Shown here in pieces: positions 1 through 11,476 of a stretch of 11,476 nt of DNA. The notes below the pieces were generated by a model that ran no database searches, was not told where the DNA came from, and saw only the letters and a list, made by a program, of their open reading frames with translations. Made by a program: the position numbers and the translations under genes. The stretch is taken from the IMG/VR virus record IMGVR_UViG_2609460354_000010, positions 1-11,476 of that record; one strand, given 5' to 3'. How positions within the stretch are numbered: position 1 is the stretch's first letter; each line of letters begins with the position of its first letter. Origin of the DNA: a virus. Its lineage: Duplodnaviria; Heunggongvirae; Uroviricota; Caudoviricetes.

Positions 1-21
1 ATGGCGCTCATAAATCTGGTA

Positions 22-27
22 TACTTA
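22..27 (+). promoter_or_regulatory. Candidate -10 hexamer (TATACT) of the ssrA promoter
   Basis: TATACT lies about 13 nt upstream of the mature tmRNA 5' end (G40), consistent with a short processed leader. The -35 would be outside the window. Confidence 0.3.
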
Positions 28-39
28 CCTTTACACATT

Positions 40-402
40 GGGGCTGATTCTGGATTCGACGGGATTTGCGAAACCCAAGGTGCATGCCGAGGGGCGGTTG
101 GCCTCGTAAAAAGCCGCAAAAAATAGTCGCAAACGACGAAAACTACGCTTTAGCAGCTTAATAACCTGCTTAGAGCCCTCTCTCCCTAGCCTCCGCTCTT
201 AGGACGGGGATCAAGAGAGGTCAAACCCAAAAGAGATCGCGTGGAAGCCCTGCCTGGGGTTGAAGCGTTAAAACTTAATCAGGCTAGTTTGTTAGTGGCG
301 TGTCCGTCCGCAGCTGGCAAGCGAATGTAAAGACTGACTAAGCATGTAGTACCGAGGATGTAGGAATTTCGGACGCGGGTTCAACTCCCGCCAGCTCCAC
401 CA
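40..402 (+). ncRNA. ssrA: tmRNA (transfer-messenger RNA, SsrA), 363 nt, E. coli type
   Basis: Begins GGGGCTGATTCTGGATTCGACGGG and ends GGTTCAACTCCCGCCAGCTCCACCA (tRNA-like acceptor/T-arm and CCA), matching E. coli tmRNA as I recall it. It contains the internal tag reading frame. Confidence 0.96.
129..161 (+). other. tmRNA tag-peptide reading frame (resume codon GCA; encodes ANDENYALAA, stop TAA)
   Basis: GCA AAC GAC GAA AAC TAC GCT TTA GCA GCT TAA read directly from the sequence; this is the canonical enterobacterial degradation tag. Confidence 0.9.
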
Positions 403-435
403 CTTGCTCTTCCGGATACGTCCGGAGAAATCCTG

Positions 436-470
436 AAAGCCCGCATGGCACAAGCTTTGCGGGCTTTTTT
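436..470 (+). terminator. Rho-independent terminator downstream of ssrA
   Basis: AAAGCCCGCA (436-445) pairs with TGCGGGCTTT (458-467) around a 12-nt loop, followed by a T-run (465-470). Confidence 0.6.
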
Positions 471-515
471 GTGTCTACCGTTGTCCGAGGATATCCAGCT
501 AAATCCAGTGATTAT

Positions 516-566
516 TGGTATACGTTTAGGTATACGGTAGGATATATACCTAAACGCGTATACCAA
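516..566. repeat. Imperfect palindrome (TTGGTATACGTTTAGGTATA / TATACCTAAACGCGTATACCAA) upstream of int; candidate Int arm-type or operator site
   Basis: The two arms are reverse complements except for a 2-nt insertion (CG). They end about 20 bp upstream of the int start and overlap where an int promoter would lie. Confidence 0.45.
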
Positions 567-586
567 TTCATGAAGGAGCGGCCAAA

Positions 587-1783
587 GTGGCAAGAACGAC
601 ACGCCCCCTGACCAACACAGAAGTTCTGCGCGCTAAAGCGTTAGAAAAGGATCTAACGTTGCATGATGGCGATGGTCTTTTTCTGCTCGTTAAAACGAAC
701 GGTAAGAAGTTATGGCGTTTCCGTTATCAACGTCCAGCAACAAAACAGCGAACAATGATGGGGCTAGGTGCCTTCCCCACCCTTTCACTTGCTGACGCCC
801 GACGGTTAAGAGCGAATTACCTTTCCTTGTTAGCCAACGGAATTGACCCGCAAATTCAAGCTGAAATTGCAGTGGAACAGCAGCAAATCGCACTGGACAG
901 TATTTTTTCAACCGTCGCCGCTAACTGGTTCCAGCTTAAAAGCAAAAGCGTTACCCCTGATTACGCAAAAGACATTTGGCGCTCACTGGAGAAAGATGTA
1001 TTTCCTGCCATTGGTGAGATTCCCGTTCAGCAAATCAAAGCCCGAGCATTGGTTGAAGCACTTGAGCCAATCAAAGCTCGTGGGGCACTCGAAACAGTTC
1101 GTCGTCTAGTGCAGCGTATTAACGAGATAATGATTTATGCAGTTAACACTGGTTTGATTGATGCTAACCCTGCATCTGGTGTTGGCATGGCTTTTGAGAG
1201 ACCTAAAAAGAAAAATATGCCGACTTTACGACCGGAAGAACTACCTAAGCTGATGCGCTCTTTGGTTATGTCAAACTTGTCTGTTCCGACGCGTTGTCTT
1301 ATTGAGTGGCAGCTCCTGACCCTTGTGCGCCCTTCCGAGGCTTCCGGTGCTCGGTGGGCAGAGATCGATCTCGATGCAAAGCTCTGGACTATTCCAGCCG
1401 TACGGATGAAAGCGAAGCGTGAGCACATTGTACCGCTATCTCCTCAGGCATTAGAGATTCTGGAAGTGATGAAGCCAATCAGTGCTCATCGTGAACATGT
1501 TTTTCCGAGCAGAAATGATCCCAAAAAACCGATGAACAGCCAAACTGCGAATGCTGCTTTGAAGAGAATTGGGTATGAAGGTAGGTTAGTAGCTCATGGG
1601 TTGCGTTCGATTGCGAGCACTTACCTGAATGAATCAGAATTTAATTCAGATATTATTGAGGCAGCATTGGCTCACGTCGATAAAGATGAAGTAAGACGAG
1701 CCTATAATCGTACAACTTACTTGGCGCAGCGAGTAGAATTAATGAATTTTTGGGGCTTAAAGATAAAGAGTGAGAAACTATAG
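587..1783 (+). CDS. int: Tyrosine recombinase / phage integrase (P4-type), 398 aa
   Basis: GTG start with AAGGAG 8 nt upstream. The C-terminal region has the HxxR box (HGLRS) and a candidate catalytic Tyr (AYNRTTY). It lies directly beside the tmRNA gene. The 3' end is AT-rich like the downstream cargo. Confidence 0.93.
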   Translation: MARTTRPLTNTEVLRAKALEKDLTLHDGDGLFLLVKTNGKKLWRFRYQRPATKQRTMMGLGAFPTLSLADARRLRANYLSLLANGIDPQIQAEIAVEQQQIALDSIFSTVAANWFQLKSKSVTPDYAKDIWRSLEKDVFPAIGEIPVQQIKARALVEALEPIKARGALETVRRLVQRINEIMIYAVNTGLIDANPASGVGMAFERPKKKNMPTLRPEELPKLMRSLVMSNLSVPTRCLIEWQLLTLVRPSEASGARWAEIDLDAKLWTIPAVRMKAKREHIVPLSPQALEILEVMKPISAHREHVFPSRNDPKKPMNSQTANAALKRIGYEGRLVAHGLRSIASTYLNESEFNSDIIEAALAHVDKDEVRRAYNRTTYLAQRVELMNFWGLKIKSEKL

Positions 1784-2959
1784 ATGAAATTTGAATCAAC
1801 ATCGTTAGTCAACATTATCACAGGTAATAATGGGTCAGGGAAAAGTTCGATATTAGCTGAAATTTCAAAGCAAGAATACGTTACAGGAAAAAATGTAATA
1901 TGCTTATCAAACACATCAACCAATAAATTCCCCAAAATAAAAAGCCATCGTTTTCACATTCTTAATCAGTCATCTAACACACTTACCAAAGCATTAAAAA
2001 AAGTTGTAGTAAGCAATAGTCACAATAAGATCGGGTCATCGCACGCACACATTTTCCCAAGAGTATTGGCGTATTTAGATTTCAATGAGCAACTCACATT
2101 TAAATTTACAATCTTCCCTTATGAAAGTTTCATTAGAAAATTTCAATCCGAGATGTACAACAATGAGTTAATCGGTAGTGATATCGATGAAATAACGAAT
2201 CACTTAAGAAATCTAATCGAAATAAACGATGACACTGCTAGCTCTACTGATCATGGAGTGAAAGGCTCTCACATACTTTATTTGGAGTATGCTTTCACAT
2301 ATGAATCAGAAAAAAGAATTAACACCATTCATAATCGCCTCATTGAACTAATGTTAAAGCATGAGCGCATTCTAAAAAAGAACCATTTAATACATGACAT
2401 TGAAATAACCTTAAGTCGTGGCCATAGTATAATACCATCATCTCATTTAAGCTCTGGTGAAGCGTGCTACATGGCAACACTTGCTTTTATCCTTACATAT
2501 ATATCGGATAACAGCGTAATAATAATTGATGAGCCAGAGAATAGTTTACATCCTCGTTGGCAAAAAAAATACACATCAAACCTTCTGGATCTATTATATT
2601 ATTTCGACATAAGAATAATATTAGCGACACATTCACCAATGATTGTTATAGGGGCGGTAGAAGACCATAGTGGCCTAAGTGTTTTCAAATCCGAAAATAG
2701 TACCCTTTCTCCCCTTGAAGGAAATGAAACTAATATTGATGAAGTAATGGTGGATGTGTTCGGTGTATTAACGTCAAGAAGCAGATATTTCAGCTACAAG
2801 ATAAATGAGATTCTTAATGAATACAACAATAAAAAAATAGATATAAATTCAGCACGCGACAAATTAAATAAAACAAAATCACTCGGGCCTGATGAAAGCC
2901 AAGTAAAAATAATTGAAGCAGCCAATGAAATATTAAATCAGATGGTGAAAAATGCCTAA
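1784..2959 (+). CDS. ABC-type (SMC/RecF-like, AAA15/AAA21-like) ATPase, 391 aa; PtuA-like candidate defense ATPase
   Basis: Walker A GNNGSGKSS (res 14-22, K20 codon 1841-1843), ABC signature-like LSSGE (222-226), Walker B IIIDEPE (246-252), H-loop LATHSP. The ATG follows the int TAG with no gap. The gene is AT-rich. Confidence 0.88.
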   Translation: MKFESTSLVNIITGNNGSGKSSILAEISKQEYVTGKNVICLSNTSTNKFPKIKSHRFHILNQSSNTLTKALKKVVVSNSHNKIGSSHAHIFPRVLAYLDFNEQLTFKFTIFPYESFIRKFQSEMYNNELIGSDIDEITNHLRNLIEINDDTASSTDHGVKGSHILYLEYAFTYESEKRINTIHNRLIELMLKHERILKKNHLIHDIEITLSRGHSIIPSSHLSSGEACYMATLAFILTYISDNSVIIIDEPENSLHPRWQKKYTSNLLDLLYYFDIRIILATHSPMIVIGAVEDHSGLSVFKSENSTLSPLEGNETNIDEVMVDVFGVLTSRSRYFSYKINEILNEYNNKKIDINSARDKLNKTKSLGPDESQVKIIEAANEILNQMVKNA

Positions 2960-3548
2960 CTTCACATTTACAGCAGAGAATATCTCTCATATCCGCACTG
3001 CTATATCCGAAAATAAACTCGATGACAAAGTAAAGGTGTGGGAGCACAAATTGCTTAAATCCATGAGAAGAGAACTCAAACAATATATTCTTTCCAACCG
3101 TAATGATGGTTTCAAATGTGCTTATTGCTTAAAGGATTTCCATAATGAACACAATATGAATATTGATGTTGAACACATTCTCCCCAAGTCACAATATCCA
3201 GAATATACGTTCACACTTAAAAATTTAGCGGTGGCCTGCAAGAGATGTAACCTATTAATAAAGAGAAATGATGTTTCATTTTTAAATGCTAACTTCATAA
3301 GAAAAAAACCGTTTAACTCAAAATATTATAAAATATTCCATCCTGTTATCGACAGAAAAAATCACTTATCTCTTCTGGATGTCCATTTTAATGGGTGCCA
3401 CATTATCAAGTATCAAACAAATAGTGAAAAAGCAAACAACACCTACATTTACTTCAAGTTAAATGAAGTTGAGATAGAAACATTAAACAACGCACAAGGA
3501 ATAGAACAGATAATTGATTTACTTCACACATACAACCCAAGAAATTAG
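2952..3548 (+). CDS. HNH-family endonuclease (HNN variant with CxxC...CxxC zinc-finger), 198 aa; PtuB-like candidate effector
   Basis: C56-x2-C59, catalytic-type His in DVEHILP (H75, codon 3174-3176), N91, C96-x2-C99-N. The start overlaps the ATPase stop by 8 nt (ATGCCTAA), indicating translational coupling. Confidence 0.88.
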   Translation: MPNFTFTAENISHIRTAISENKLDDKVKVWEHKLLKSMRRELKQYILSNRNDGFKCAYCLKDFHNEHNMNIDVEHILPKSQYPEYTFTLKNLAVACKRCNLLIKRNDVSFLNANFIRKKPFNSKYYKIFHPVIDRKNHLSLLDVHFNGCHIIKYQTNSEKANNTYIYFKLNEVEIETLNNAQGIEQIIDLLHTYNPRN

Positions 3549-3568
3549 AAACAAAACAATATCTAATT

Positions 3569-3587
3569 AGCCGCCACAAGGCGGCTT
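3569..3587. terminator. Hairpin between convergent genes (candidate bidirectional terminator)
   Basis: AGCCGCC-ACAA-GGCGGCT stem-loop flanked by AT-rich sequence, located between the HNH gene end (3548) and the minus-strand small gene end (3596). Confidence 0.5.
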
Positions 3588-3595
3588 CTACTCAA

Positions 3596-3820
3596 TTAGC
3601 CTTTGGATTTTTTTGGATCATCTTTCCGCTGATAAGTACGCTCTTCCTGAAATCGCCCGTCCTCTTTGTGGATTTTAACCGAGCCTGTTTTATCAGTCAT
3701 ATATTCTTGCATTTCTCTGACAATCTCATTTTTAGTCGTCGCCGTCTTACTTGGTCTTTCATTACCTTCTTTCTGAAGTTTCCATTTATCACCATCCTTA
3801 GTAATGTGATATTTATCCAT
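3596..3820 (-). CDS. DUF2188-like small protein (74 aa from the ATG at 3820; the ORF track gives a TTG-initiated 78-aa form)
   Basis: The motif pattern H-I-T-K-DGDKW-K-KEG...IHKEDGRFQEERTY resembles the DUF2188 family as I recall it. GGAGG lies 5-6 nt upstream of the internal ATG (MDKYH...), so the shorter start is favoured. Confidence 0.65.
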   Translation of the reverse strand: MDKYHITKDGDKWKLQKEGNERPSKTATTKNEIVREMQEYMTDKTGSVKIHKEDGRFQEERTYQRKDDPKKSKG

Positions 3821-4032
3821 TAGAACCTCCAAATGTAGTTAGACATATGAGATGACAGTAAAAATTTTATACGGAAAGAGGCACTAGATTTGTGCCATAA
3901 CTCTCATTCTGAAAATACGCCTCCGATAAACACAATAAATGACATTGGCAACTTATCGACGGTTGGTATTACTGCATCTACATATCGCATACCTGAGATC
4001 ATATTAATATTACGTTCAACCGCTAGCGCGCA

Positions 4033-4051
4033 ATGCTTTCCCCGCCTCGCC
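4033..4051 (-). other. cos site: P2/P4-type 19-nt cohesive end sequence (18/19 match)
   Basis: The minus strand reads GGCGAGGCGGGGAAAGCAT against the P2/P4 cohesive end GGCGAGGCGGGGAAAGCAC as I recall it. It sits between the cargo islet and psu, as expected for an integrated P4-like element. Confidence 0.75.
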
Positions 4052-4074
4052 CGCCCGCTTTGCGGGGCGGTTTT
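4051..4074 (+). terminator. GC-rich hairpin plus TTTT immediately next to cos
   Basis: CCGCCCGC-TTT-GCGGGGCGG followed by TTTT; it would stop plus-strand read-through from the cargo islet. Confidence 0.4.
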
Positions 4075-4153
4075 AATGCAGTTGCACTGACACGCTCAGA
4101 CCGCGCCGGGAATGGTGCGGTCTGCAGAAAATGAGGCAGGAAAACGCATGCAA

Positions 4154-4185
4154 AGCCATGCACCTTATCGATGCATGGCTTTTTT
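4154..4185. terminator. Hairpin with flanking T/A runs between cos and psu (candidate bidirectional terminator)
   Basis: AGCCATGCA (4154-4162) pairs with TGCATGGCT (4172-4180), followed by TTTTT on the plus strand; on the minus strand the hairpin is followed by TTTGCATGCGTTTT. The psu stop is at 4216. Confidence 0.5.
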
Positions 4186-4215
4186 CAGTAAAAACGGGCG
4201 GATTTTCGGGGAATT

Positions 4216-4788
4216 TTACACAGACTGACGTGATGCCAGTTGCGCACTTTTACGCGAAAAAATCATGTTCTGCGCAGGAGTGAATTTTTCACGGCTGTCA
4301 TCCACCGAAGCCGCGTCAGGCCTGAATCCGATGGCCGTTAAAATGTCGCTATCCTGTACGGAATAATTAATTTTTTCACCCTTCGCAAGCCAGGACAGAA
4401 GGGCTTCACGCAGGGCATCTGTGGCACGCTGTATGGCACAGTTTCGGGCAATGGCCGTCAGCTCACTGTAGCCCATCAGCTCCGGTGCCAGTGCCGCCGC
4501 CAGTGCTGTGCCGTGCTGCTGCATAAAATCATTCAGCCGGTCGCGGATGCTGATGTGCTGAACGGCTTCATGCGAACGAATATAACGACCGGCGGCCTGA
4601 TTCACCTGCCATTTTCTGACTTCGATAATATTGCGTAATTCGTCCAGGCGACTGACGTTTCTGCCTTCTCCTGACTGAAGCCGCAGATATTCCTGTTCGG
4701 CCGCTGCCAGCTCATTTTTGCGTTGCAGCCATGCTGCTTTGTTATTCTGACAGGTGTCAAAGGCCTGCTGTAAGGCTGTGCTTTCCAT
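4216..4788 (-). CDS. psu: Polarity suppression protein Psu (capsid decoration / Rho antagonist), 190 aa
   Basis: 190 aa, the same length as P4 Psu; the sequence (MESTALQQAFDTCQNNKAAWLQ...) matches P4 Psu as I recall it. It is the last gene of the sid-delta-psu operon. Confidence 0.92.
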   Translation of the reverse strand: MESTALQQAFDTCQNNKAAWLQRKNELAAAEQEYLRLQSGEGRNVSRLDELRNIIEVRKWQVNQAAGRYIRSHEAVQHISIRDRLNDFMQQHGTALAAALAPELMGYSELTAIARNCAIQRATDALREALLSWLAKGEKINYSVQDSDILTAIGFRPDAASVDDSREKFTPAQNMIFSRKSAQLASRQSV

Positions 4789-4861
4789 CGTTATCTCTTT
4801 CTCATCATGCTGAAGAATAAAAATACGGTGTGCGGCGACGGCCGGGGTTAACCGGCAGCCC

Positions 4862-5362
4862 TCATTCCAGACGCAGCGAATATGATTGTGTTTTTAACCG
4901 TACTGGCGGCAGTTCCTGTTTTTCATGCAGGCGTTCTGCCAGTTCGTCCGGTGTGACCGGGCGGACAATGAAGCGGTTGATGGTCTGAAGCGTTTTAAAC
5001 ACCAGACCACAGCCCGGATCCGTGCACACATAAAAACGTTCGGTGACTTCCTGAGACAGACGCCGCGATGTTCTTGACAGTGCAAGGCCTTTACATCTCC
5101 GACAACAATATCCGGTAACAAGCATTCTTTTCGGGCGTTTCATACTGCCGGAGGCAGAAGTCAGTGAATCGCGGTATCTCTGTTTGCCTGAAATGTATTC
5201 CATTCCTGAATCTTTACTGTCAGAGAAAAAGCTTTCACTCGCTTCAAATGTCGCAGAGCAATAAATATTCCGGCACTGTGCAATCATTATCTTGGTGCCA
5301 TCGTCCATGAAATGTGCGCGGCGGGTGTGAGCAACATGTCCACACGACGGGCAGTAAATCAT
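4862..5362 (-). CDS. delta: Delta late-gene transcriptional activator (Ogr-family zinc finger, duplicated), 166 aa
   Basis: Begins MIYCPSCGH...CRNIYCSATF (Ogr/Delta Cys4 motif) and a second Cys-rich repeat follows. 166 aa as in P4 Delta. The start overlaps the sid stop (ATGA). Confidence 0.92.
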   Translation of the reverse strand: MIYCPSCGHVAHTRRAHFMDDGTKIMIAQCRNIYCSATFEASESFFSDSKDSGMEYISGKQRYRDSLTSASGSMKRPKRMLVTGYCCRRCKGLALSRTSRRLSQEVTERFYVCTDPGCGLVFKTLQTINRFIVRPVTPDELAERLHEKQELPPVRLKTQSYSLRLE

Positions 5363-6093
5363 GACAGCAGTCCTCTGGCCTTAAGCTCTGCTCCCTGCTG
5401 GTCTATTTTGTCCTGCCACACCTTGCGCTGTGCCGGTGTGCCTGCCACCTCATAATCCATGTGCGGAAGTGTTGCCGCTGACAGTCCGGTCAGCCGGAGA
5501 ACCGGCTCGCCGGTGAGGCTGATTTGCATCTGTTTAATTTTCTGTTCCAGCGATGATTTCACCTGCTGCATGACAGCCTTTTCCGGTGCGACGTAGCCCT
5601 GATGGCCGGTGGCGTTGGCGAGCGGATTTTCCTGTACCAGAATGCTCAGATGCATTGCCCGGACAAGCGCCTCACAGGTTTCATTCAGGGCGTGTTCCAG
5701 CTCATGCTCTGCATACAGGCTCAGCAGGTGATGGTGTGCCTTCCGGTAGGCGGTGGCCGTGCTGTCACACGCCCCTTTCAGGCGTTCGCGTTCAAAATTC
5801 AGCACCACGGCCAGATTGTCATATTCCTGTACCAGCTCCCGGCGTGCCACGCGCTCAATGTGGCGCTGTTTCAGCTCGTCGCTCAGGACACCACCGGCTG
5901 CACGAAAGGCCGTGCGCCAGTCGTCAGCGTCGTTTCCGTCGGCCTGCGCCAGCGCATTTTTTTCCTGCTCTGCCCGTTCAATGGCCGTGACGGTCTCATC
6001 CATCAGGCGGGCGTTCTCAAGATGAGCGGCTCTGGCCTTTTCCAGTTGTGCCAGCGCGGGTTGCAGATATTCAGGGATGGTGTTGTCAGACAT
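5359..6093 (-). CDS. sid: Sid capsid size-determination (external scaffold) protein, 244 aa from the ATG at 6093
   Basis: The ORF track starts at a GTG (6111), but GAGGAG lies 7 nt upstream of the internal ATG (MSDNTIPEY...), giving 244 aa as in P4 Sid. The protein is coiled-coil rich. Confidence 0.9.
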   Translation of the reverse strand: MSDNTIPEYLQPALAQLEKARAAHLENARLMDETVTAIERAEQEKNALAQADGNDADDWRTAFRAAGGVLSDELKQRHIERVARRELVQEYDNLAVVLNFERERLKGACDSTATAYRKAHHHLLSLYAEHELEHALNETCEALVRAMHLSILVQENPLANATGHQGYVAPEKAVMQQVKSSLEQKIKQMQISLTGEPVLRLTGLSAATLPHMDYEVAGTPAQRKVWQDKIDQQGAELKARGLLS

Positions 6094-6127
6094 TTTCCGG
6101 CTCCTCGTCACTTCAGGTTAAGAAAAT

Positions 6128-6183
6128 TGTGACGTACACCGGACAACAACACGACGCATTGCAGATGTGCCAGCCCTGACACA
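6128..6183 (-). promoter_or_regulatory. Psid-like late promoter with two TGT-N12-ACA activator (Delta/Ogr) sites
   Basis: TGTgacgtacaccggACA (6128-6145) and TGTgccagccctgacACA (6166-6183), centres 38 bp apart. Placing them at about -18 and -55 predicts a minus-strand start near 6119, 26 nt upstream of the sid ATG. Confidence 0.6.
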
Positions 6184-6262
6184 GGAGACTCATCCTCAGA
6201 CCGGCAAGCCAGGAAAAGGTCGCAGGAAAAACCGGCTTACTGTTTGTTTTTTTATATTTTAC

Positions 6263-6366
6263 TGTTCACCTCTGTTCACCATAAGAAAAAAGATAAGTAA
6301 TACAGTAAGTTAAAGGGTGAACAATCGCAGTAATGACTGTTCACCGTCTGTTCACCACTGTTCACC
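6263..6366. repeat. Iteron cluster: six copies of TGTTCACC (five direct, one inverted); crr/ori-type alpha-binding repeats
   Basis: Copies at 6263-6270, 6273-6280, 6317-6324 (inverted, GGTGAACA), 6338-6345, 6349-6356 and 6359-6366, spaced about 10-11 bp within clusters. TGTTCACC is the type I iteron bound by P4 alpha. An AT-rich tract follows (6370-6470). Confidence 0.75.
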
Positions 6367-6524
6367 CGTTGATGGGCTTTTTGTGCTGTTTATTACTTTT
6401 TATTTTTATTAATTCACTGAAATAAATAAGAAAAAACAATTTGTATTTCACTATAATTTTTTCCAGCTCCTTCCAGAGCGTTTTAAAGCTATCTGGCGCT
6501 GATGTACAAAAAATACACAGCCAT

Positions 6525-6542
6525 TGTAAGGCTGCCGGAACA
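6525..6542 (+). promoter_or_regulatory. Candidate PLL-like late promoter activator site (TGT-N12-ACA) upstream of vis
   Basis: TGTaaggctgccggaACA, with a degenerate second site (TGC-N12-CAA, 6561-6578) 36 bp downstream. Predicted plus-strand start is near 6588; the vis ATG is at 6645. Confidence 0.4.
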
Positions 6543-6644
6543 AATCCCCCCTGTTGCGTCTGCCGAAAATATTCACAAAATAAAGCGCTACCCGAAGCCG
6601 GACGGACTTATCCGGTGCTGTATGGACATTAACGAGGTAGCCCG

Positions 6645-6911
6645 ATGCAAGCTGTTTTTTCTTCCCCGTCTCCCGCCCCTGTGACGCCACTGATGCCGCT
6701 GCCGGACATCACGCAGGAGCGTTTTTTACGTCTGCCGGAAGTGATGCACCTGTGCGGCCTGTCACGCTCGACCATCTACGAACTCATCCGTAAGGGGGAA
6801 TTTCCGCCGCAGGTGAGTCTTGGCGGTAAAAATGTGGCCTGGCTGCACTCTGAAGTCACCGCATGGATGGCCGGGCGCATTGCCGGACGCAAACGGGGGT
6901 ACGACGCGTGA
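6645..6911 (+). CDS. vis: AlpA/Vis-family HTH regulator (excisionase-like), 88 aa
   Basis: HTH core [42 protein letters not shown] is typical of the AlpA/Vis family. GAGG lies 7 nt upstream of the ATG. Its position between the late promoter and the immunity region matches P4 vis. Confidence 0.8.
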
Positions 6912-6946
6912 TGATACCCGTCCTGCAAAAACTCCCTTTTTCTGGC

Positions 6947-6976
6947 TTGCCTTTTTCCGGCATTTGCGGATATAGT
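6947..6976 (+). promoter_or_regulatory. Candidate sigma70 promoter (PLE-like): -35 TTGCCT, 18-bp spacer, -10 TATAGT
   Basis: Hexamers read from the sequence; located between vis and the immunity leader. Only a motif match, not verified. Confidence 0.3.
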
Positions 6977-7002
6977 TTTTCCGCTGCCGCAAAATCGGCA
7001 GC

Positions 7003-7288
7003 CGGGCGTGAGAACCCGAGCAATTCACAGGCGACATATGACGCGCCACGCGTCTTTTTTTGTGTCGCAATCAATGCCACAGAGCGCCAGATTATGGTGT
7101 GGTGTGTGGTCAGTCGTGCAGATGGCATTCCGTGCATCCTGCCCGCGTCCGCTCATTATGCCGCAGAGTCAATGGTAGCTCAGGCGGGGCAGCCTCCGGG
7201 CTGGCCGGTATCCTGTGAAGCCGGTATTCTCACCCCCGTCTGGGCTATCGCCATCGAGCGTGAGAACTCCGGCGATAGCGTTATTTGC
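7003..7288 (+). ncRNA. Candidate P4-type RNA-immunity leader region (seqA/seqB/seqC-like elements and terminator hairpins); exact RNA ends unknown
   Basis: Direct repeat GCGTGAGAAC at 7006-7015 and 7258-7267. A segment at 7220-7233 (GCCGGTATTCTCAC) is complementary to both in 12 of 14 positions. Hairpin plus T7 at 7040-7061 (GACGCG-CCA-CGCGTC-TTTTTTT). Hairpin GCTATCGCC/GGCGATAGC (7244-7279) followed by TTATTT. No convincing coding frame across 6912-7309. Confidence 0.3.
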
Positions 7289-7309
7289 TATTCACAGGAG
7301 GCTGCCATC

Positions 7310-7507
7310 ATGGCTACAACCCTTACCCCCTCACACCCTGAATTTGTCTTTGTGTTTGCGGCTGTCCGTCGCACAGACCGTCATCCCCGTATCTGTATGC
7401 TTCGCACCGTCGCCGGTGATGAACGCAGCGCCCGCCGTTCCCTTGTCCGTGACTATGTGCTCTCCCTTGCTGCCCGTCTGCCGGTGGTGGAGGTGTCCCG
7501 TGCGTAA
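7310..7507 (+). CDS. kil: Small protein, 65 aa; Kil-like by position and size
   Basis: AGGAGG lies 8 nt upstream of the ATG and third-position codon bias is strong. It is the first gene after the immunity leader. The name is assigned from P4 synteny and size only. Confidence 0.6.
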
Positions 7508-7787
7508 TAAAAAAGCCCCTCAGACCGTCTCAGCGCGTCATGACGCCCGTGAACACCTCAGCATTGAGGCTTACCATAAGCTCAACCGCGCCAGCGCCGT
7601 ATCCCAGTTTGTTGGGGGTGATTTGATTCACCGTGAACTCTCCGGCCTGCATCAGCTCTACATTCCGCATATTTTCAGTTACCTGAATGAAGATATTGAT
7701 TTTGTGCTGAATGAGCTGAAAGCCAAAGGCCTGTGCCGCGATTTTCTCGCCCAGCAGAAAGACCGGGGAGACAGGACGCATGTTTGA
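7500..7787 (+). CDS. epsilon: Small protein, 95 aa (GTG start); epsilon-like (antirepressor) by position
   Basis: GTG start 6 nt after GGTGGAGG, overlapping the kil stop; coding-like codon usage. The ORF track's longer 190-aa version has a low-complexity N-terminus that overlaps kil and the leader. The name is by synteny only. Confidence 0.55.
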
Positions 7788-8235
7788 TTTTCCCCAGCCC
7801 GGTGAGATTTACCGTTCTGCCGGTTTTCCCGATGTGGCCGTGGTCGGCATTCTGGAAGACGGTATTCCGTGGGAAATGCCGTACCGCTGCCCGGACATTG
7901 TCTGGAACCCGTACCGCCGTAAATTCAGTATCCTTGTGCGTATCCTCGCTGACGGACGCACCACAGACATCCCGCTGGGGCGTTTTCTGCGGGAATTTAC
8001 CTGTGACCGTCCTGACCTGTTTAAACGCAGCCCCGTAAACCGGCATGCGGTACTGAAAGAAATGGCCGGAGACCCGGAATTACAGAAATGGCGGGAAAAA
8101 TATCTGGATATTTACCCGCAGGCCCCTGTTCCGGTCAGCCGGGCGGCACCGGTGGCGCGGGAATGGCGGGAAATTCCCCGCACGGAGCCTGACCCGGAAA
8201 TCACCCCGGATAACAGTTACCGCAATTATCTGTAA
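7780..8235 (+). CDS. Conserved hypothetical protein, 151 aa (P4 orf151-like)
   Basis: The ATG overlaps the upstream stop (ATGTTTGA), indicating translational coupling. Size and position match P4 orf151 as I recall it. Confidence 0.7.
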   Translation: MFDFPQPGEIYRSAGFPDVAVVGILEDGIPWEMPYRCPDIVWNPYRRKFSILVRILADGRTTDIPLGRFLREFTCDRPDLFKRSPVNRHAVLKEMAGDPELQKWREKYLDIYPQAPVPVSRAAPVAREWREIPRTEPDPEITPDNSYRNYL

Positions 8236-8370
8236 TTAAAAAACGACACCCGAAAAATTAAATGTGCGTATTCGCGCAGGGATACGCACGTCTTCAGGAG
8301 ACGCAGATATGCCTTATCAGTTAATGCAACCGGCACGGAATGCAGTCATCTGTCACAGGGAGGAAAGCAA

Positions 8371-8691
8371 ATGAAAACCCCCTTACCGCCCGTCTTACGC
8401 GCAGCCCTTTACCGTCGCGCTGTCGCCTGTGCCTGGCTGACCGTGTGCGAACGTCAGCACCGCTACCCGCATCTCACCCTTGAATCACTGGAGGCGGCCA
8501 TCGCCGCTGAGCTGGAAGGCTTTTATCTGCGCCAGCACGGTGAGGAAAAAGGGCGTCAGATAGCCTGTGCCCTGCTGGAAGATTTAATGGAATCCGGCCC
8601 CCTGAAGGCCGCGCCGTCGCTGTCCTTTCTCGGGCTGGTTGTGATGGATGAACTCTGTGCCCGTCACATAAAAGCGCCGGTACTGCACTGA
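8371..8691 (+). CDS. cnr: 106-aa protein immediately upstream of alpha; Cnr-like (copy number regulation)
   Basis: GGAGG-containing RBS before the ATG; 106 aa, directly preceding alpha as for P4 cnr (orf106) as I recall it. Confidence 0.65.
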
Positions 8692-8705
8692 AGGAGAACA
8701 ACACC

Positions 8706-11039
8706 ATGAAAATGAACGTAACCGCCACCGTCAGCCATGCACTCGGCCACTGGCCGCGTATTCTCCCGGCGCTGGGGATTCAGGTGCTGAAAAACCGTCA
8801 TCAGCCCTGTCCGGTCTGTGGCGGGAGTGACCGCTTCCGTTTTGATGACAGGGAGGGGCGCGGCACCTGGTACTGCAATCAGTGTGGTGCCGGTGACGGC
8901 CTGAAACTGGTTGAAAAGGTGTTTGGTGTTTCCCCGTCCGACGCGGCCACAAAGGTGGCTGCCGTGACCGGCAGTCTGCCCCCGGCTGACCCGGCAGTGA
9001 CGGCCGCCGCCGTTGCTGAAACAGAAGCCGCCCGGAAGAACGCCGCCGCACTGGCACAAACCCTGATGGCGAAAACCCGTCCCGGAACCGGTAACGCCTA
9101 CCTGACCCGCAAGGGCTTTCCCGGCCGGGAATGCCGGATGCTGACCGGCACACACAGAGCCGGTGGCGTGAGCTGGCGCGCCGGTGACCTTGTGGTGCCA
9201 CTGTATGACGACAGCGGCGAACTGGTTAACCTTCAGTTAATCAGTGCTGACGGCCGTAAGCGCACCCTGAAAGGCGGACAGGTCAGGGGCACCTGTCACA
9301 TCCTTGAAGGACAGAATCAGGCCGGAAAACGTCTGTGGATAGCGGAGGGATACGCGACCGCACTTACCGTACATCACCTGACCGGTGAAACGGTGATGGT
9401 GGCGCTTTCTTCCGTGAACCTCCTTTCTCTGGCCAGCCTTGCCCGGCAGAAGCATCCGGCCTGTCAGATTGTCCTTGCCGCAGACCGTGACCTCAGCGGT
9501 GACGGCCAGAAAAAAGCCGCCGCAGCCGCAGATGCGTGTGAGGGTGTTGTTGCCCTGCCGCCGGTCTTCGGTGACTGGAATGATGCCTTCACGCAGTACG
9601 GCGGGGAAGCCACCCGTAAGGCCATTTATGATGCCATCCGGCCACCGGCTGAAAGCCCGTTCGACACCATGAGCGAAGCGGAGTTTTCCGCCATGAGTAC
9701 CAGCGAAAAGGCCATGCGTATCTATGAGCATTACGGCGAGGCGCTCGCGGTCGATGCCAACGGCCAGCTTCTGTCCCGCTATGAAAATGGTGTCTGGAAG
9801 GTGCTGCCGCCACAGGACTTTGCCCGGGATGTGGCCGGGCTGTTTCAGCGGCTGCGTGCGCCGTTCTCCTCCGGGAAGGTGGCCTCCGTGGTGGACACCC
9901 TGAAGCTGATTATTCCGCAGCAGGAAGCCCCCTCCCGCCGCCTGATTGGCTTTCGTAACGGCGTGCTCGACACGCAGAACGGCACGTTCCACCCGCACAG
10001 TCCGTCACACTGGATGCGCACCCTGTGCGATGTGGATTTCACCCCGCCGGTGGAAGGGGAAACGCTGGAAACCCACGCCCCCGCGTTCTGGCGCTGGCTT
10101 GACCGTGCCGCCGGTGGCCGTGCGGAAAAACGCGACGTGATTCTGGCCGCACTGTTTATGGTGCTGGCAAACCGCTACGACTGGCAGCTCTTTCTGGAGG
10201 TGACCGGTCCCGGCGGCAGCGGCAAAAGTATCATGGCCGAAATAGCCACCCTGCTGGCCGGTGAGGATAACGCCACGTCGGCCACCATCGAGACGCTGGA
10301 ATCCCCGCGTGAACGTGCCGCGTTAACTGGCTTCTCACTGATACGCCTGCCGGACCAGGAAAAATGGAGCGGCGACGGAGCCGGACTCAAGGCCATCACC
10401 GGCGGCGATGCAGTGTCCGTTGACCCGAAATACCGGGATGCGTACTCCACGCACATCCCGGCGGTGATTCTGGCCGTGAACAATAACCCGATGCGCTTCA
10501 CCGACCGCAGCGGCGGCGTGTCACGCCGGCGGGTGATTATTCACTTCCCGGAACAGATAGCCCCGCAGGAGCGCGACCCGCAGCTTAAGGACAAAATCAC
10601 CCGCGAGCTGGCGGTCATCGTGCGTCACCTGATGCAGAAATTCAGCGACCCGATGCTCGCCCGGTCACTGCTTCAGTCCCAGCAAAACTCAGACGAGGCG
10701 CTGAACATCAAACGGGATGCCGACCCGACGTTTGATTTTATCGGCTATCTGGAAACCCTGCCGCAGACCAGCGGCATGTATATGGGGAACGCCAGTATCA
10801 TCCCGCGTAATTACCGTAAATACCTCTATCACGCCTATCTGGCCTACATGGAGGCAAACGGCTACCGGAATGTACTCAGTCTGAAAATGTTCGGGCTGGG
10901 GCTGCCGGTGATGCTGAAGGAATACGGACTGAATTACGAGAAGCGCCATACCAAACAGGGGATACAGACCAACCTGACGCTGAAAGAGGAAAGCTACGGC
11001 GACTGGCTGCGTATTACCGTGAAGGAGATCGGTGAGTAA
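8706..11039 (+). CDS. alpha: Alpha replication protein (primase-helicase with C-terminal origin-binding domain), 777 aa
   Basis: 777 aa, as for P4 alpha. N-terminal zinc-binding CPVCGG...CNQCGAG (primase zinc finger), Walker A GPGGSGKS (helicase), AAGGAG RBS. The TGTTCACC iterons it would bind are at 6263-6366. Confidence 0.95.
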   Translation: MKMNVTATVSHALGHWPRILPALGIQVLKNRHQPCPVCGGSDRFRFDDREGRGTWYCNQCGAGDGLKLVEKVFGVSPSDAATKVAAVTGSLPPADPAVTAAAVAETEAARKNAAALAQTLMAKTRPGTGNAYLTRKGFPGRECRMLTGTHRAGGVSWRAGDLVVPLYDDSGELVNLQLISADGRKRTLKGGQVRGTCHILEGQNQAGKRLWIAEGYATALTVHHLTGETVMVALSSVNLLSLASLARQKHPACQIVLAADRDLSGDGQKKAAAAADACEGVVALPPVFGDWNDAFTQYGGEATRKAIYDAIRPPAESPFDTMSEAEFSAMSTSEKAMRIYEHYGEALAVDANGQLLSRYENGVWKVLPPQDFARDVAGLFQRLRAPFSSGKVASVVDTLKLIIPQQEAPSRRLIGFRNGVLDTQNGTFHPHSPSHWMRTLCDVDFTPPVEGETLETHAPAFWRWLDRAAGGRAEKRDVILAALFMVLANRYDWQLFLEVTGPGGSGKSIMAEIATLLAGEDNATSATIETLESPRERAALTGFSLIRLPDQEKWSGDGAGLKAITGGDAVSVDPKYRDAYSTHIPAVILAVNNNPMRFTDRSGGVSRRRVIIHFPEQIAPQERDPQLKDKITRELAVIVRHLMQKFSDPMLARSLLQSQQNSDEALNIKRDADPTFDFIGYLETLPQTSGMYMGNASIIPRNYRKYLYHAYLAYMEANGYRNVLSLKMFGLGLPVMLKEYGLNYEKRHTKQGIQTNLTLKEESYGDWLRITVKEIGE

Positions 11040-11083
11040 CGGCGTTTTTCAAGGTAGTTGTCGCCTTTTGTAATAAAATTACG

Positions 11084-11476
11084 TTATGCAGCCTCTTTTT
11101 CTGGATTCAGGTAGACTTCTGATATGTAGTCCCAGTTACGTAGATGCTTTCCCCAACGTTCAGGATGCTGTTCGCGTGCCAGCTGGTATACTGCTTTTCT
11201 GGCCGCCAGTATTTTCATATCATTACCTTGATGACGCTCGGCTGGCGTGACGTATTTGATCCCGCTGTGCTTATGTTCAAAGTTGTACCAGTTTACAAAA
11301 CGGTTTACCCATATTCTGGCATCATTAATAGTGCGAAAACCGTTCTCAGGCCACCAGGGACAATATTTGAGAGTCCGGAACAAAGATTCTGAGTAAGGAT
11401 TATCATTGCTGACTCTTGGCCGGGAATAAGAACTTAGCACACCAAGCGCATACATTTTCGCCAACAACGTGTAACT
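11084..11476 (-). CDS. IS3-family DDE transposase (OrfB), C-terminal part; gene continues beyond the window edge
   Basis: DNPYSESLFRTLK resembles the IS3-family catalytic-Glu region, with a C-terminal ...YVTPAE... tail. The reading frame is open to the window end. GC content differs from the satellite backbone. Confidence 0.8.
   Translation of the reverse strand, partial: SYTLLAKMYALGVLSSYSRPRVSNDNPYSESLFRTLKYCPWWPENGFRTINDARIWVNRFVNWYNFEHKHSGIKYVTPAERHQGNDMKILAARKAVYQLAREQHPERWGKHLRNWDYISEVYLNPEKEAA

Follow-up and report, generated by a model that had tools for sequence, protein, structure and literature searches.

Introduction

P4-like satellites are known to carry a defence hotspot that lies between psu and int and adjoins cos, and in which defence systems, Septu being among those listed, sit in either orientation (Rousset et al. 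2022, PMC9122126, passages on the hotspot). The defence loci of these satellites are swapped very rapidly by a mechanism that has not been mapped; in the passages that deal with this exchange, de Sousa et al. (2026, PMC13586616) write that defence genes enter the hotspots 'through a presumably different mechanism', and they omit the integrase from their core-gene analyses. Here we describe such a hotspot at fine scale in the virus record IMGVR_UViG_2609460354_000010 of IMG/VR, of which positions 1 to 11,476 were analysed (11,476 nucleotides (nt), hereafter the window). In the window, a P4-like satellite is integrated at ssrA of E. coli and follows this gene, and the AT-rich stretch behind the integrase gene int is the already known defence hotspot of P4 satellites between int and psu/cos, with a Septu system as its cargo. 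Our main result concerns the left edge of this hotspot: int is, as judged from the aligned sequences, a recombinant gene, the 5' third of which is of a common E. coli type and which from about 1500-1560 on carries a haplotype linked to Septu.

Septu was named by Doron et al. 2018 (as cited in a passage of PMC9122126). The PtuAB complex restricts phages via its nuclease activity, and cleavage of tRNA-Tyr has been reported for one Septu and for the PtuAB of retron-Eco7 (PMC13096335 and PMC12673091, passages on the complex). The window system resembles type I Septu in its two overlapping genes, its full-length PtuA1 and PtuB1 matches and its ATPase and HNH motifs, but differs in that its clade (at least 48% identity) was found only directly behind a P4-type int, with no upstream spacer. 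With the type I-A retron-Eco7 (Ec78) it shares a homologous effector pair, an ATPase (PtuA) together with a nuclease (PtuB). A retron of this type was considered and rejected: there was no reverse transcriptase domain in the open reading frames (ORFs) scanned, and no retron non-coding RNA among the four Rfam matches at the gathering threshold. Since both are missing, the cargo is a stand-alone type I Septu.

The element shows no difference in kind from the hotspot of Rousset et al. and de Sousa et al.: the slot (int, cargo, cos, psu), the element family and the host species are the same, and AT-rich variable cargo stands beside cos. An original prediction, made from the sequence alone, had spoken of a cargo in an AT-rich island whose left boundary lay inside int, and the word cargo was apt, as this is a P4-satellite defence hotspot with Septu. 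Every testable defining feature of a P4-like hotspot and of a type I Septu was found, which makes this an element of known kinds, and the fine-scale points reported here refine a known system and do not amount to a new kind. The passages on the hotspot in PMC9122126 and PMC13586616 delimit it at the level of genes, with no int-internal left boundary, no Int tail and no decay of linkage. What goes beyond the retrieved literature passages is the asymmetry of the boundaries, the cargo-specified tail of Int, the family-wide AT-rich and diverged 3' end of int, and the conserved int coupling of a Septu clade specific to satellites. According to the same passages, large published surveys use the integrase as a boundary marker or omit it.

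Results and discussion

The variable region starts inside int

The window was compared with 16 further ssrA satellites of E. coli, the cargo of which is unrelated: it includes DUF262/HEPN, a restriction endonuclease, ABC-three-component genes, a kinase/phosphatase pair and DUF4435/AAA. All 16 carry these unrelated genes between the same int and cos-psu flanks; each can be aligned to the window from ssrA as far as 1755/1756 and not past it, and alignment resumes at 4017-4026. In the E. coli relatives, Int is conserved up to ...LMNWWG and continues with unrelated tails, and tblastn matches stop at Int residue 390 (Gly390, 1754-1756) in 187 of 191 loci. Beyond the conserved part, the tail measures 1-20 residues in our family set, which comprises 158 unique int genes (loci L001-L190) taken from E. 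coli, from IMG/VR and from about 80 further species. In the window, the tail is LKIKSEKL followed by TAG (1757-1783, + strand), directly after the point at which both the alignments and the tblastn matches end, and the same 27 nt contain a weak purine-rich stretch 5' of the ATG of ptuA, the first cargo gene. The tails vary by cargo and are kept among Septu carriers, which alone have tails (LKIMSEKK and LKINRERK) that resemble that of the window. Since homology is lost at 1756, 27 nt before the stop, the last eight Int codons and the stop codon come from the cargo side. We conclude that the variable region extends from 1757 to about 4018-4025 and starts inside int. The alignment called for in the original prediction thus does place the break in similarity inside the int 3' end, the strict break being at 1756.

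The right homology boundary, at 4015-4027 and 6-18 nt before the cohesive end, is a jump in identity. At this point, 12 of the 13 E. coli relatives that carry other cargo rise from no similarity to 90-100% identity without a gradient, and a uniform identity of 93-100% is kept among E. coli elements across the right flank. The exception, L010, has a diverged psu lineage. The edges of the hotspot are asymmetric, the cos-psu edge being abrupt and the int edge having a kilobase-long identity gradient (950-1756).

int is a mosaic of two lineages

int (587-1783, + strand) has a GTG start and encodes a P4-family tyrosine integrase of 398 amino acids (Pfam Arm-DNA-bind_3, Phage_int_M and Phage_integrase). 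Its 5' block (587-950, + strand) shares 99-100% identity with ssrA satellites of E. coli that have unrelated cargo (L001, L002 and L009); over 587-886 the identity is 97-100% to these three and 53-78% to Septu carriers. A PtuA protein search of one genome per species gave no match, and relatives were obtained instead by a protein homology search and contig look-ups. The nearest PtuA relatives, with 86, 76 and 71% amino acid identity, come from a metagenome (L025), Klebsiella (L018-L021) and Serratia (L022-L024), and all of these loci are ssrA-type P4-like satellites with the order int-ptuA-ptuB-DUF2188. The 3' segment of the window int (1520-1756, + strand, with the breakpoint estimated at 1500-1560) was inherited with the Septu cargo. 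Over 1547-1756 its identity to L025, to L018 from Klebsiella and to L022 from Serratia is 92, 83 and 80%, respectively, and over 1587-1686 the values are 96, 86 and 86%, with 69-76% to the other-cargo E. coli elements that were sampled first. In a wider set, the best non-Septu match over 1547-1696 was 79%.

Left of the best breakpoint at about 1045, 138 informative sites are of the E. coli type and 4 of the Septu type; the sites are mixed between about 950 and 1500 and nearly all of the Septu type from about 1547 on. When L025 or L018 served as the parent on the Septu side, the maximum chi-square was 98-120; with L022 it was 65, and the highest value among permutations (n=500) was 21. With the best available non-Septu parents, the maximum chi-square places the switch to the Septu-linked haplotype at 1501-1561, which is 220-280 nt before the int stop and near the boundary given in the original prediction. 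Beyond int, the window is 71-97% identical to L025 through the cargo and identity falls again right of cos, where the flank of the window is of the E. coli type. A comparison of elements with the same cargo and a different int 5' part was uninformative for H42 (DUF262/HEPN), whose integrase protein is the same as that of L002. Recombination within the int 3' end, which had been proposed on compositional grounds, is supported by this mosaic with a breakpoint at about 1500-1560, but not by the composition originally used.

Linkage to the cargo decays along int

Across the 158 family members, cargo linkage decays along int from the 3' to the 5' end. We analysed 12,403 pairs of family members, for which the following numbers are raw counts, uncorrected for shared ancestry among loci. 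Cargo was shared in 39 of the 45 pairs that are at least 95% identical in the int 3' segment, and in 31 of the 218 pairs with the same level of identity in the int 5' third. In the remaining 187 of these 218 pairs, which have different cargo, identity along int declines from at least 0.95 through 0.90 and 0.85 to 0.755, the background being 0.73. Among 15 E. coli elements, mean identity at third codon positions is lower in the 3' segment (0.48) than in the 5' third (0.74). Shared cargo can be predicted from similarity in the int 3' end but not from similarity in the 5' end, and the direction and size of this difference are clear. For this one integrase family, the hotspot has a graded left edge in int and an abrupt right edge at cos, and the int 3' end is by far the better predictor of cargo, which makes it a practical marker for cargo typing.

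We consider it highly probable that the locus as a whole is a hotspot at ssrA with type I Septu as its cargo and with a recombinant int, in which cargo is swapped by homologous recombination. One crossover would take place in the near-identical cos-psu flank and the other somewhere in int or ssrA. The divergence of the int 3' end (about 25-30% between cargo types) would suppress crossovers beside the cargo, and as crossovers would be rare in this diverged end, the segment would stay linked to its cargo. The outcome is a testable model for the movement of defence systems, in which a cos-psu crossover is combined with an int crossover and local divergence acts as the suppressor. Some of our data weigh against it. 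Apart from the shared ancestry that the pair counts leave uncorrected, the middle part of int (about 950-1500) lies about equally far from the two lineages; the history involves several events, and the exact crossover cannot be fixed. Furthermore, 6 of the 45 pairs with near-identical int 3' ends differ in cargo, and some replacements therefore take place at the very junction at 1756, perhaps through illegitimate recombination.

If replacement at the junction were the rule, no crossovers in int would be needed: the AT-richness would be intrinsic to the integrase family, Gly390 (1756) would be the sole real boundary, and cargo would be replaced up to cos by illegitimate recombination or end joining. 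The homology breaks at 1755/1756 and 4015-4027 are indeed sharp, and the same six of 45 pairs combine different cargo with int 3' ends that are at least 95% identical. The GC content at third codon positions (GC3) drops toward the int 3' end in 156 of 158 genes whatever the cargo, the window not being unusual, and illegitimate recombination is deemed possible by the authors of PMC13586616 in a passage of that paper. However, such replacement leaves the highly significant mosaic, with its E. coli-type 5' third and Septu-type 3' segment, without an explanation, and a progressive decay of identity along int in different-cargo pairs is not expected under it. As a complete account it is largely refuted, and we regard it as very improbable.

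The identity gradient could also result from ordinary chromosomal recombination in E. coli, with tracts that enter via the smpB-ssrA flank and end in the prophage, and exchange from satellite to satellite would then be unneeded. Identity does peak by ssrA (98-100% over 401-940) and drops with distance, and the right flank, uniformly 93-100% identical in E. coli, fits a homogenization of the backbone within the species. The same decay was, however, found in a set spanning many genera. Moreover, this process is itself homologous recombination with a crossover in int, and so it refines the explanation by homologous cargo exchange and does not replace it. That it makes exchange between satellites dispensable seems rather unlikely to us.

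Genes that flank hypervariable loci, for example gnd beside the O-antigen cluster of E. coli, become sharply more diverged and mosaic towards the cassette. Like gnd, int is a conserved gene beside a cassette selected for diversity and is diverged on the cassette side; unlike gnd, it lies on a mobile element, and the effect is one-sided, since the cos-psu flank has no gradient. We tentatively suggest that int is part of the hotspot in two ways: its last 250 nt or so, together with the tail, may be a cargo-linked haplotype that is kept diverged and AT-rich in all lineages by heterology, which would suppress crossovers beside the cargo, and in a sizeable minority of the elements the first defence gene may be translationally coupled to int, whose autoregulated promoter would then set the dosage of the defence system in these elements.

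The low GC content at the 3' end of int is shared by the whole integrase family

The predicted low-GC block exists, with a GC content of about 0.33-0.38 against about 0.48-0.56 on either side. By segment, the GC content is 0.484 in int from 587 to 1500, 0.440 in 1501-1600, 0.383 in 1601-1783, 0.333 in ptuA, 0.323 in ptuB, 0.380 in the DUF2188 ORF, 0.369 in 3833-4000 and 0.530 in 4001-4215. A two-segment likelihood scan placed the left change point at 1627, supported within 2 log-likelihood units over 1557-1756, and a change point at the int stop (1783) was about 3.9 log-likelihood units worse. The left edge had been described as a sharp drop at about 1600; this was right as to its position and wrong as to its sharpness, the fall being gradual. 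The right edge had been put at 3850, about 170 nt short of the actual change point, which is 4019 (support 4007-4027), next to cos, and the roughly 190 nt from the DUF2188 start to cos are still AT-rich.

The low synonymous-site GC of the int 3' end belongs to the whole family and not to this element. In the 158 genes, mean GC3 is 0.495 in the int 5' third, 0.44-0.45 in the middle and 0.297 in the equivalent of 1547-1756, and all but two of the genes have a lower GC3 in the 3' segment than in the 5' third. The fall takes place over the last 270 nt or so (equivalent to 1487-1756), from about 0.48-0.50 to about 0.27-0.34 in many genera. The window value for the 3' segment, 0.34, is above the family mean and not unusual. 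In three 60-nt bins over the equivalent of 1601-1780, the mean GC content of 16 E. coli relatives is 0.39/0.40/0.37, compared with 0.35/0.43/0.37 in the window. Since the GC3 drop is family-wide, composition alone is uninformative about the breakpoint, and the compositional argument of the original prediction falls by its own test, as relatives with unrelated cargo share the low-GC int 3' end.

Long-term linkage to AT-rich cargo, reduced recombination and selection are candidate causes of the GC3 fall. GC3 of the int 3' end and GC of the adjacent cargo were not correlated in the 158 loci (Spearman r 0.11, p = 0.17); this test is without power, because the cargo GC hardly varies (mean 0.336, sd 0.034). 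The int of P4 itself is too diverged from the window int for an alignment at the DNA level, so that P4 could not be used for the comparison of composition.

Stop/start coupling of Septu to int and possible co-transcription

int and ptuA are on the same strand, with zero spacer and no terminator between them (TAG/ATG at 1781-1786); it had been read correctly from the sequence that the int stop codon TAG (1781-1783) directly abuts the ATG of the ATPase gene (1784-1786). In all seven lineages of the satellite PtuA clade (48-100% identity), ptuA stands directly behind a P4-type int, and the junction was never opened. It takes the form TAGATG in the window and L025, TAATG in L018, GTGA in L022, ATGA in L027 and TTGA in L029, and in L193 the genes abut; L027 is not located at ssrA. 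PtuA homologues with about 33% identity lie in chromosomal contexts, where a spacer of about 300-560 nt precedes the gene. Regardless of the kind of cargo, 72 of the 158 loci have their first cargo ORF on the same strand as int, and in 23 of these 72, among them the entire satellite Septu clade, it overlaps or abuts the int stop. Same-strand cargo is also packed against int with a 4-nt overlap in L006 (2403-4040), an 18-nt gap in L016 (7207-9933) and a 41-nt gap in L009 (from 7251), and in L003 an opposite-strand cargo gene overlaps the int stop convergently by 4 nt.

We favour an int-ptuA-ptuB transcript with translational coupling, although our confidence in it is evenly balanced. Co-transcription is favoured because the stop/start coupling is kept in all seven satellite PtuA lineages, and translational coupling requires a shared mRNA. 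The int promoter would drive ptuAB as part of an int-ptuA-ptuB message that ends at a hairpin at 3569-3586 (see below), and translation of PtuA would be coupled to the termination of Int. P4 int is negatively regulated by Int and Vis, according to the title of Piazzolla 2006 as cited in PMC7286903. If the operon is real, defence expression would be tied to the regulation of the integrase, and the Septu dosage would be set by an autoregulated int promoter and change with the integration/excision state.

It is also possible, although we have clear reservations, that ptuAB has its own promoter in the AT-rich 3' coding part of int and that the abutment reflects nothing but compaction. A consensus scan of 400-4300 revealed no + strand promoter with at least 9/12 matches (at least 4 per hexamer) upstream of ptuA, and the number of promoter-like sites in this region, 7 versus 10.7 in shuffled sequence, is weak negative evidence. 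With a laxer scan, weak sigma-70-like sites (8-9/12) appeared at 1611-1640, 1629-1656 and 1681-1708, and these speak against the shared message: the one at 1629-1656, ATGAAT-16-TATTAT, is conserved in four Septu-lineage genes, those of the window, L025, L018 and L022, and the site at 1681-1708 is TAAAGA-16-TATAAT. An embedded promoter would also fit the local identity peak among Septu carriers at 1581-1670 (96/87/87%), as well as the activity of hotspot systems, this Septu not included, that were cloned 'with native promoters' (PMC9122126, passage on cloning). None of the sites reaches the threshold of the stricter scan, however, and overlapping stop and start codons with GTG or TTG as the start (L022, L029) are typical of translational coupling. 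TATAAT at 1703-1708 was rejected as a selected promoter element: it corresponds to Tyr-Asn codons of the catalytic motif, occurs in 73 of 158 genes and is not enriched beside same-strand cargo (31/72 versus 39/76, p = 0.33).

The Septu genes and their convergent neighbour

ptuA (1784-2959, + strand) encodes the Septu ATPase of 391 amino acids, which matches PADLOC PtuA1 (PDLC00303, E 4.9e-162) over residues 1-391 as well as Pfam AAA_21 and AAA_15. Its translation has intact Walker A (GNNGSGKS), signature (LSSGE), Walker B (VIIIDEPE) and H-loop (ATHSP) motifs. ptuB (2952-3548, + strand) overlaps it by 8 nt and encodes the Septu HNH nuclease of 198 amino acids (PADLOC PtuB1, PDLC00352, E 8.2e-86; Pfam HNH), whose translated motif CAYC ... 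DVEH ... CKRCN is an HNH with two Cys pairs. Solved PtuA and AriA chains in the PDB match only the C-terminal ATPase part of PtuA (E about 1e-7), and no PtuB chain matched the window PtuB in the PDB sequence comparison. By homology, a putative anti-phage role can be assigned to this Septu.

The second cargo gene, convergent to ptuAB, is a DUF2188 gene of 74 amino acids (3596-3820, - strand; Pfam DUF2188, E 2.5e-16), which starts with the ATG at 3820-3818 after GGAGGT; this reading agrees with the RefSeq annotation in E. coli S43. It also matches PDC-S16 (E 6.8e-12), a candidate family of PADLOC. A GC-rich hairpin at 3569-3586 separates it from ptuB. The fold of 3540-3610 has -17 kcal/mol (z = -3.05) and none of 200 shuffled sequences was equally stable; the hairpin is a probable bidirectional terminator. 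The AT-rich non-coding end of the variable region (3821-4018, GC about 0.37) is conserved in Septu-carrying relatives only, and the DUF2188 promoter presumably lies within it. The DUF2188/PDC-S16 gene stands beside Septu in elements from E. coli, Klebsiella, Serratia and the metagenome (L019, L022 and L025). In more distant satellite Septu loci (L027, L029 and L193) it is absent or swapped for other genes, for example DUF4747, and thus behaves as a separate second cassette by cos.

Layout of the element and further observations

The window is 100% identical to the chromosome of E. coli EC14 (NZ_CM169487.1), and the cargo was found in 10 of 5426 complete E. coli genomes. Along the window, attL/ssrA, int, cargo, cos, psu-delta-sid, CI RNA and alpha follow one another in a P4-like gene order. 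The integration target ssrA (transfer-messenger RNA, 40-402, + strand) was identified by ARAGORN and as Rfam RF00023 with 295.8 bits; its 3' end is attL, and the element-specific sequence begins at about 389-403. A second copy of the ssrA 3' end (attR) was searched for in the window and was not found there. Core genes are represented by the Pfam domains Phage_integrase, Psu, Ogr_Delta, Phage_AlpA, Phage_ASH and Derepression, and the alpha primase by Zn_Ribbon_Prim, Toprim_3 and D5_N. Right of the cargo, psu, delta and a gene in the sid position are all on the - strand, and further genes are alpA, an Ash/epsilon-like pair, DUF5375 and the alpha primase. The immunity RNA of the CI/C4 type lies at 7168-7255 (Rfam C4, 74.9 bits); other Rfam matches were isrK and c4-a1b1. 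The map slot of the cargo is reportedly occupied in P4 itself by a non-essential region with gop, beta and cII, between cos and int (Ghisotti et al. 1990). As in the window, a gene that follows int on the same strand, cII, is said to be found there, but the genes of that region are unrelated to the window cargo.

psu (4216-4788, - strand; Pfam Psu, E 3.7e-88), the first conserved core gene right of the hotspot, is 98.8% identical to that of P4. The same identity holds for the psu-cos part as a whole, and the alignment ends with the P4 record (X51522, position 11624, which corresponds to window position 4052). This end places the 19-nt cohesive-end sequence of cos at 4033-4051 (- strand). The reverse complement of GGCGAGGCGGGGAAAGCAC, which we take to be the P2/P4 cohesive-end sequence, matches this stretch at 18 of 19 positions. 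Right after the cohesive end, a hairpin CCGCCCGCTTTGCGGGGCGG followed by TTTT (4051-4070, + strand) resembles a terminator and seems positioned to halt cargo read-through into the psu antisense strand.

In the sid position, the ORF at 5359-6111 (- strand) had no Pfam match and matched PHROG 6165. The label of this family, 'polarity suppression Psu-like', looks mis-transferred, the true psu being at 4216-4788. At the right end of the window, an ORF at 11084-11467 (- strand) with an insertion sequence (IS)-type integrase core (Pfam rve_3, E 1.4e-12) ends about 45 nt past the alpha stop; an IS may interrupt the satellite at its right end, unless that end lies beyond the window.

E. coli S43 (NZ_CP010237.1, 3001-6754; locus L004) and MB06022 contain a truncated copy that corresponds to 389-4143 of the window (int, Septu, DUF2188 and cos) and, in S43, matches it from 389 on. 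The copy is joined to an AIDA-repeat pseudogene and lies behind another island (SIR2, ankyrin), not directly at ssrA, an arrangement that looks like tandem or decayed islands. Finally, a near-perfect palindrome of 54 nt (514-567) is located just 5' of the int ribosome-binding site and GTG. It is made up of two inverted repeats, with arms at 514-524/557-567 and 523-534/545-556 that are both 100% complementary, and it may be an operator or a cluster of regulatory or arm sites for int.

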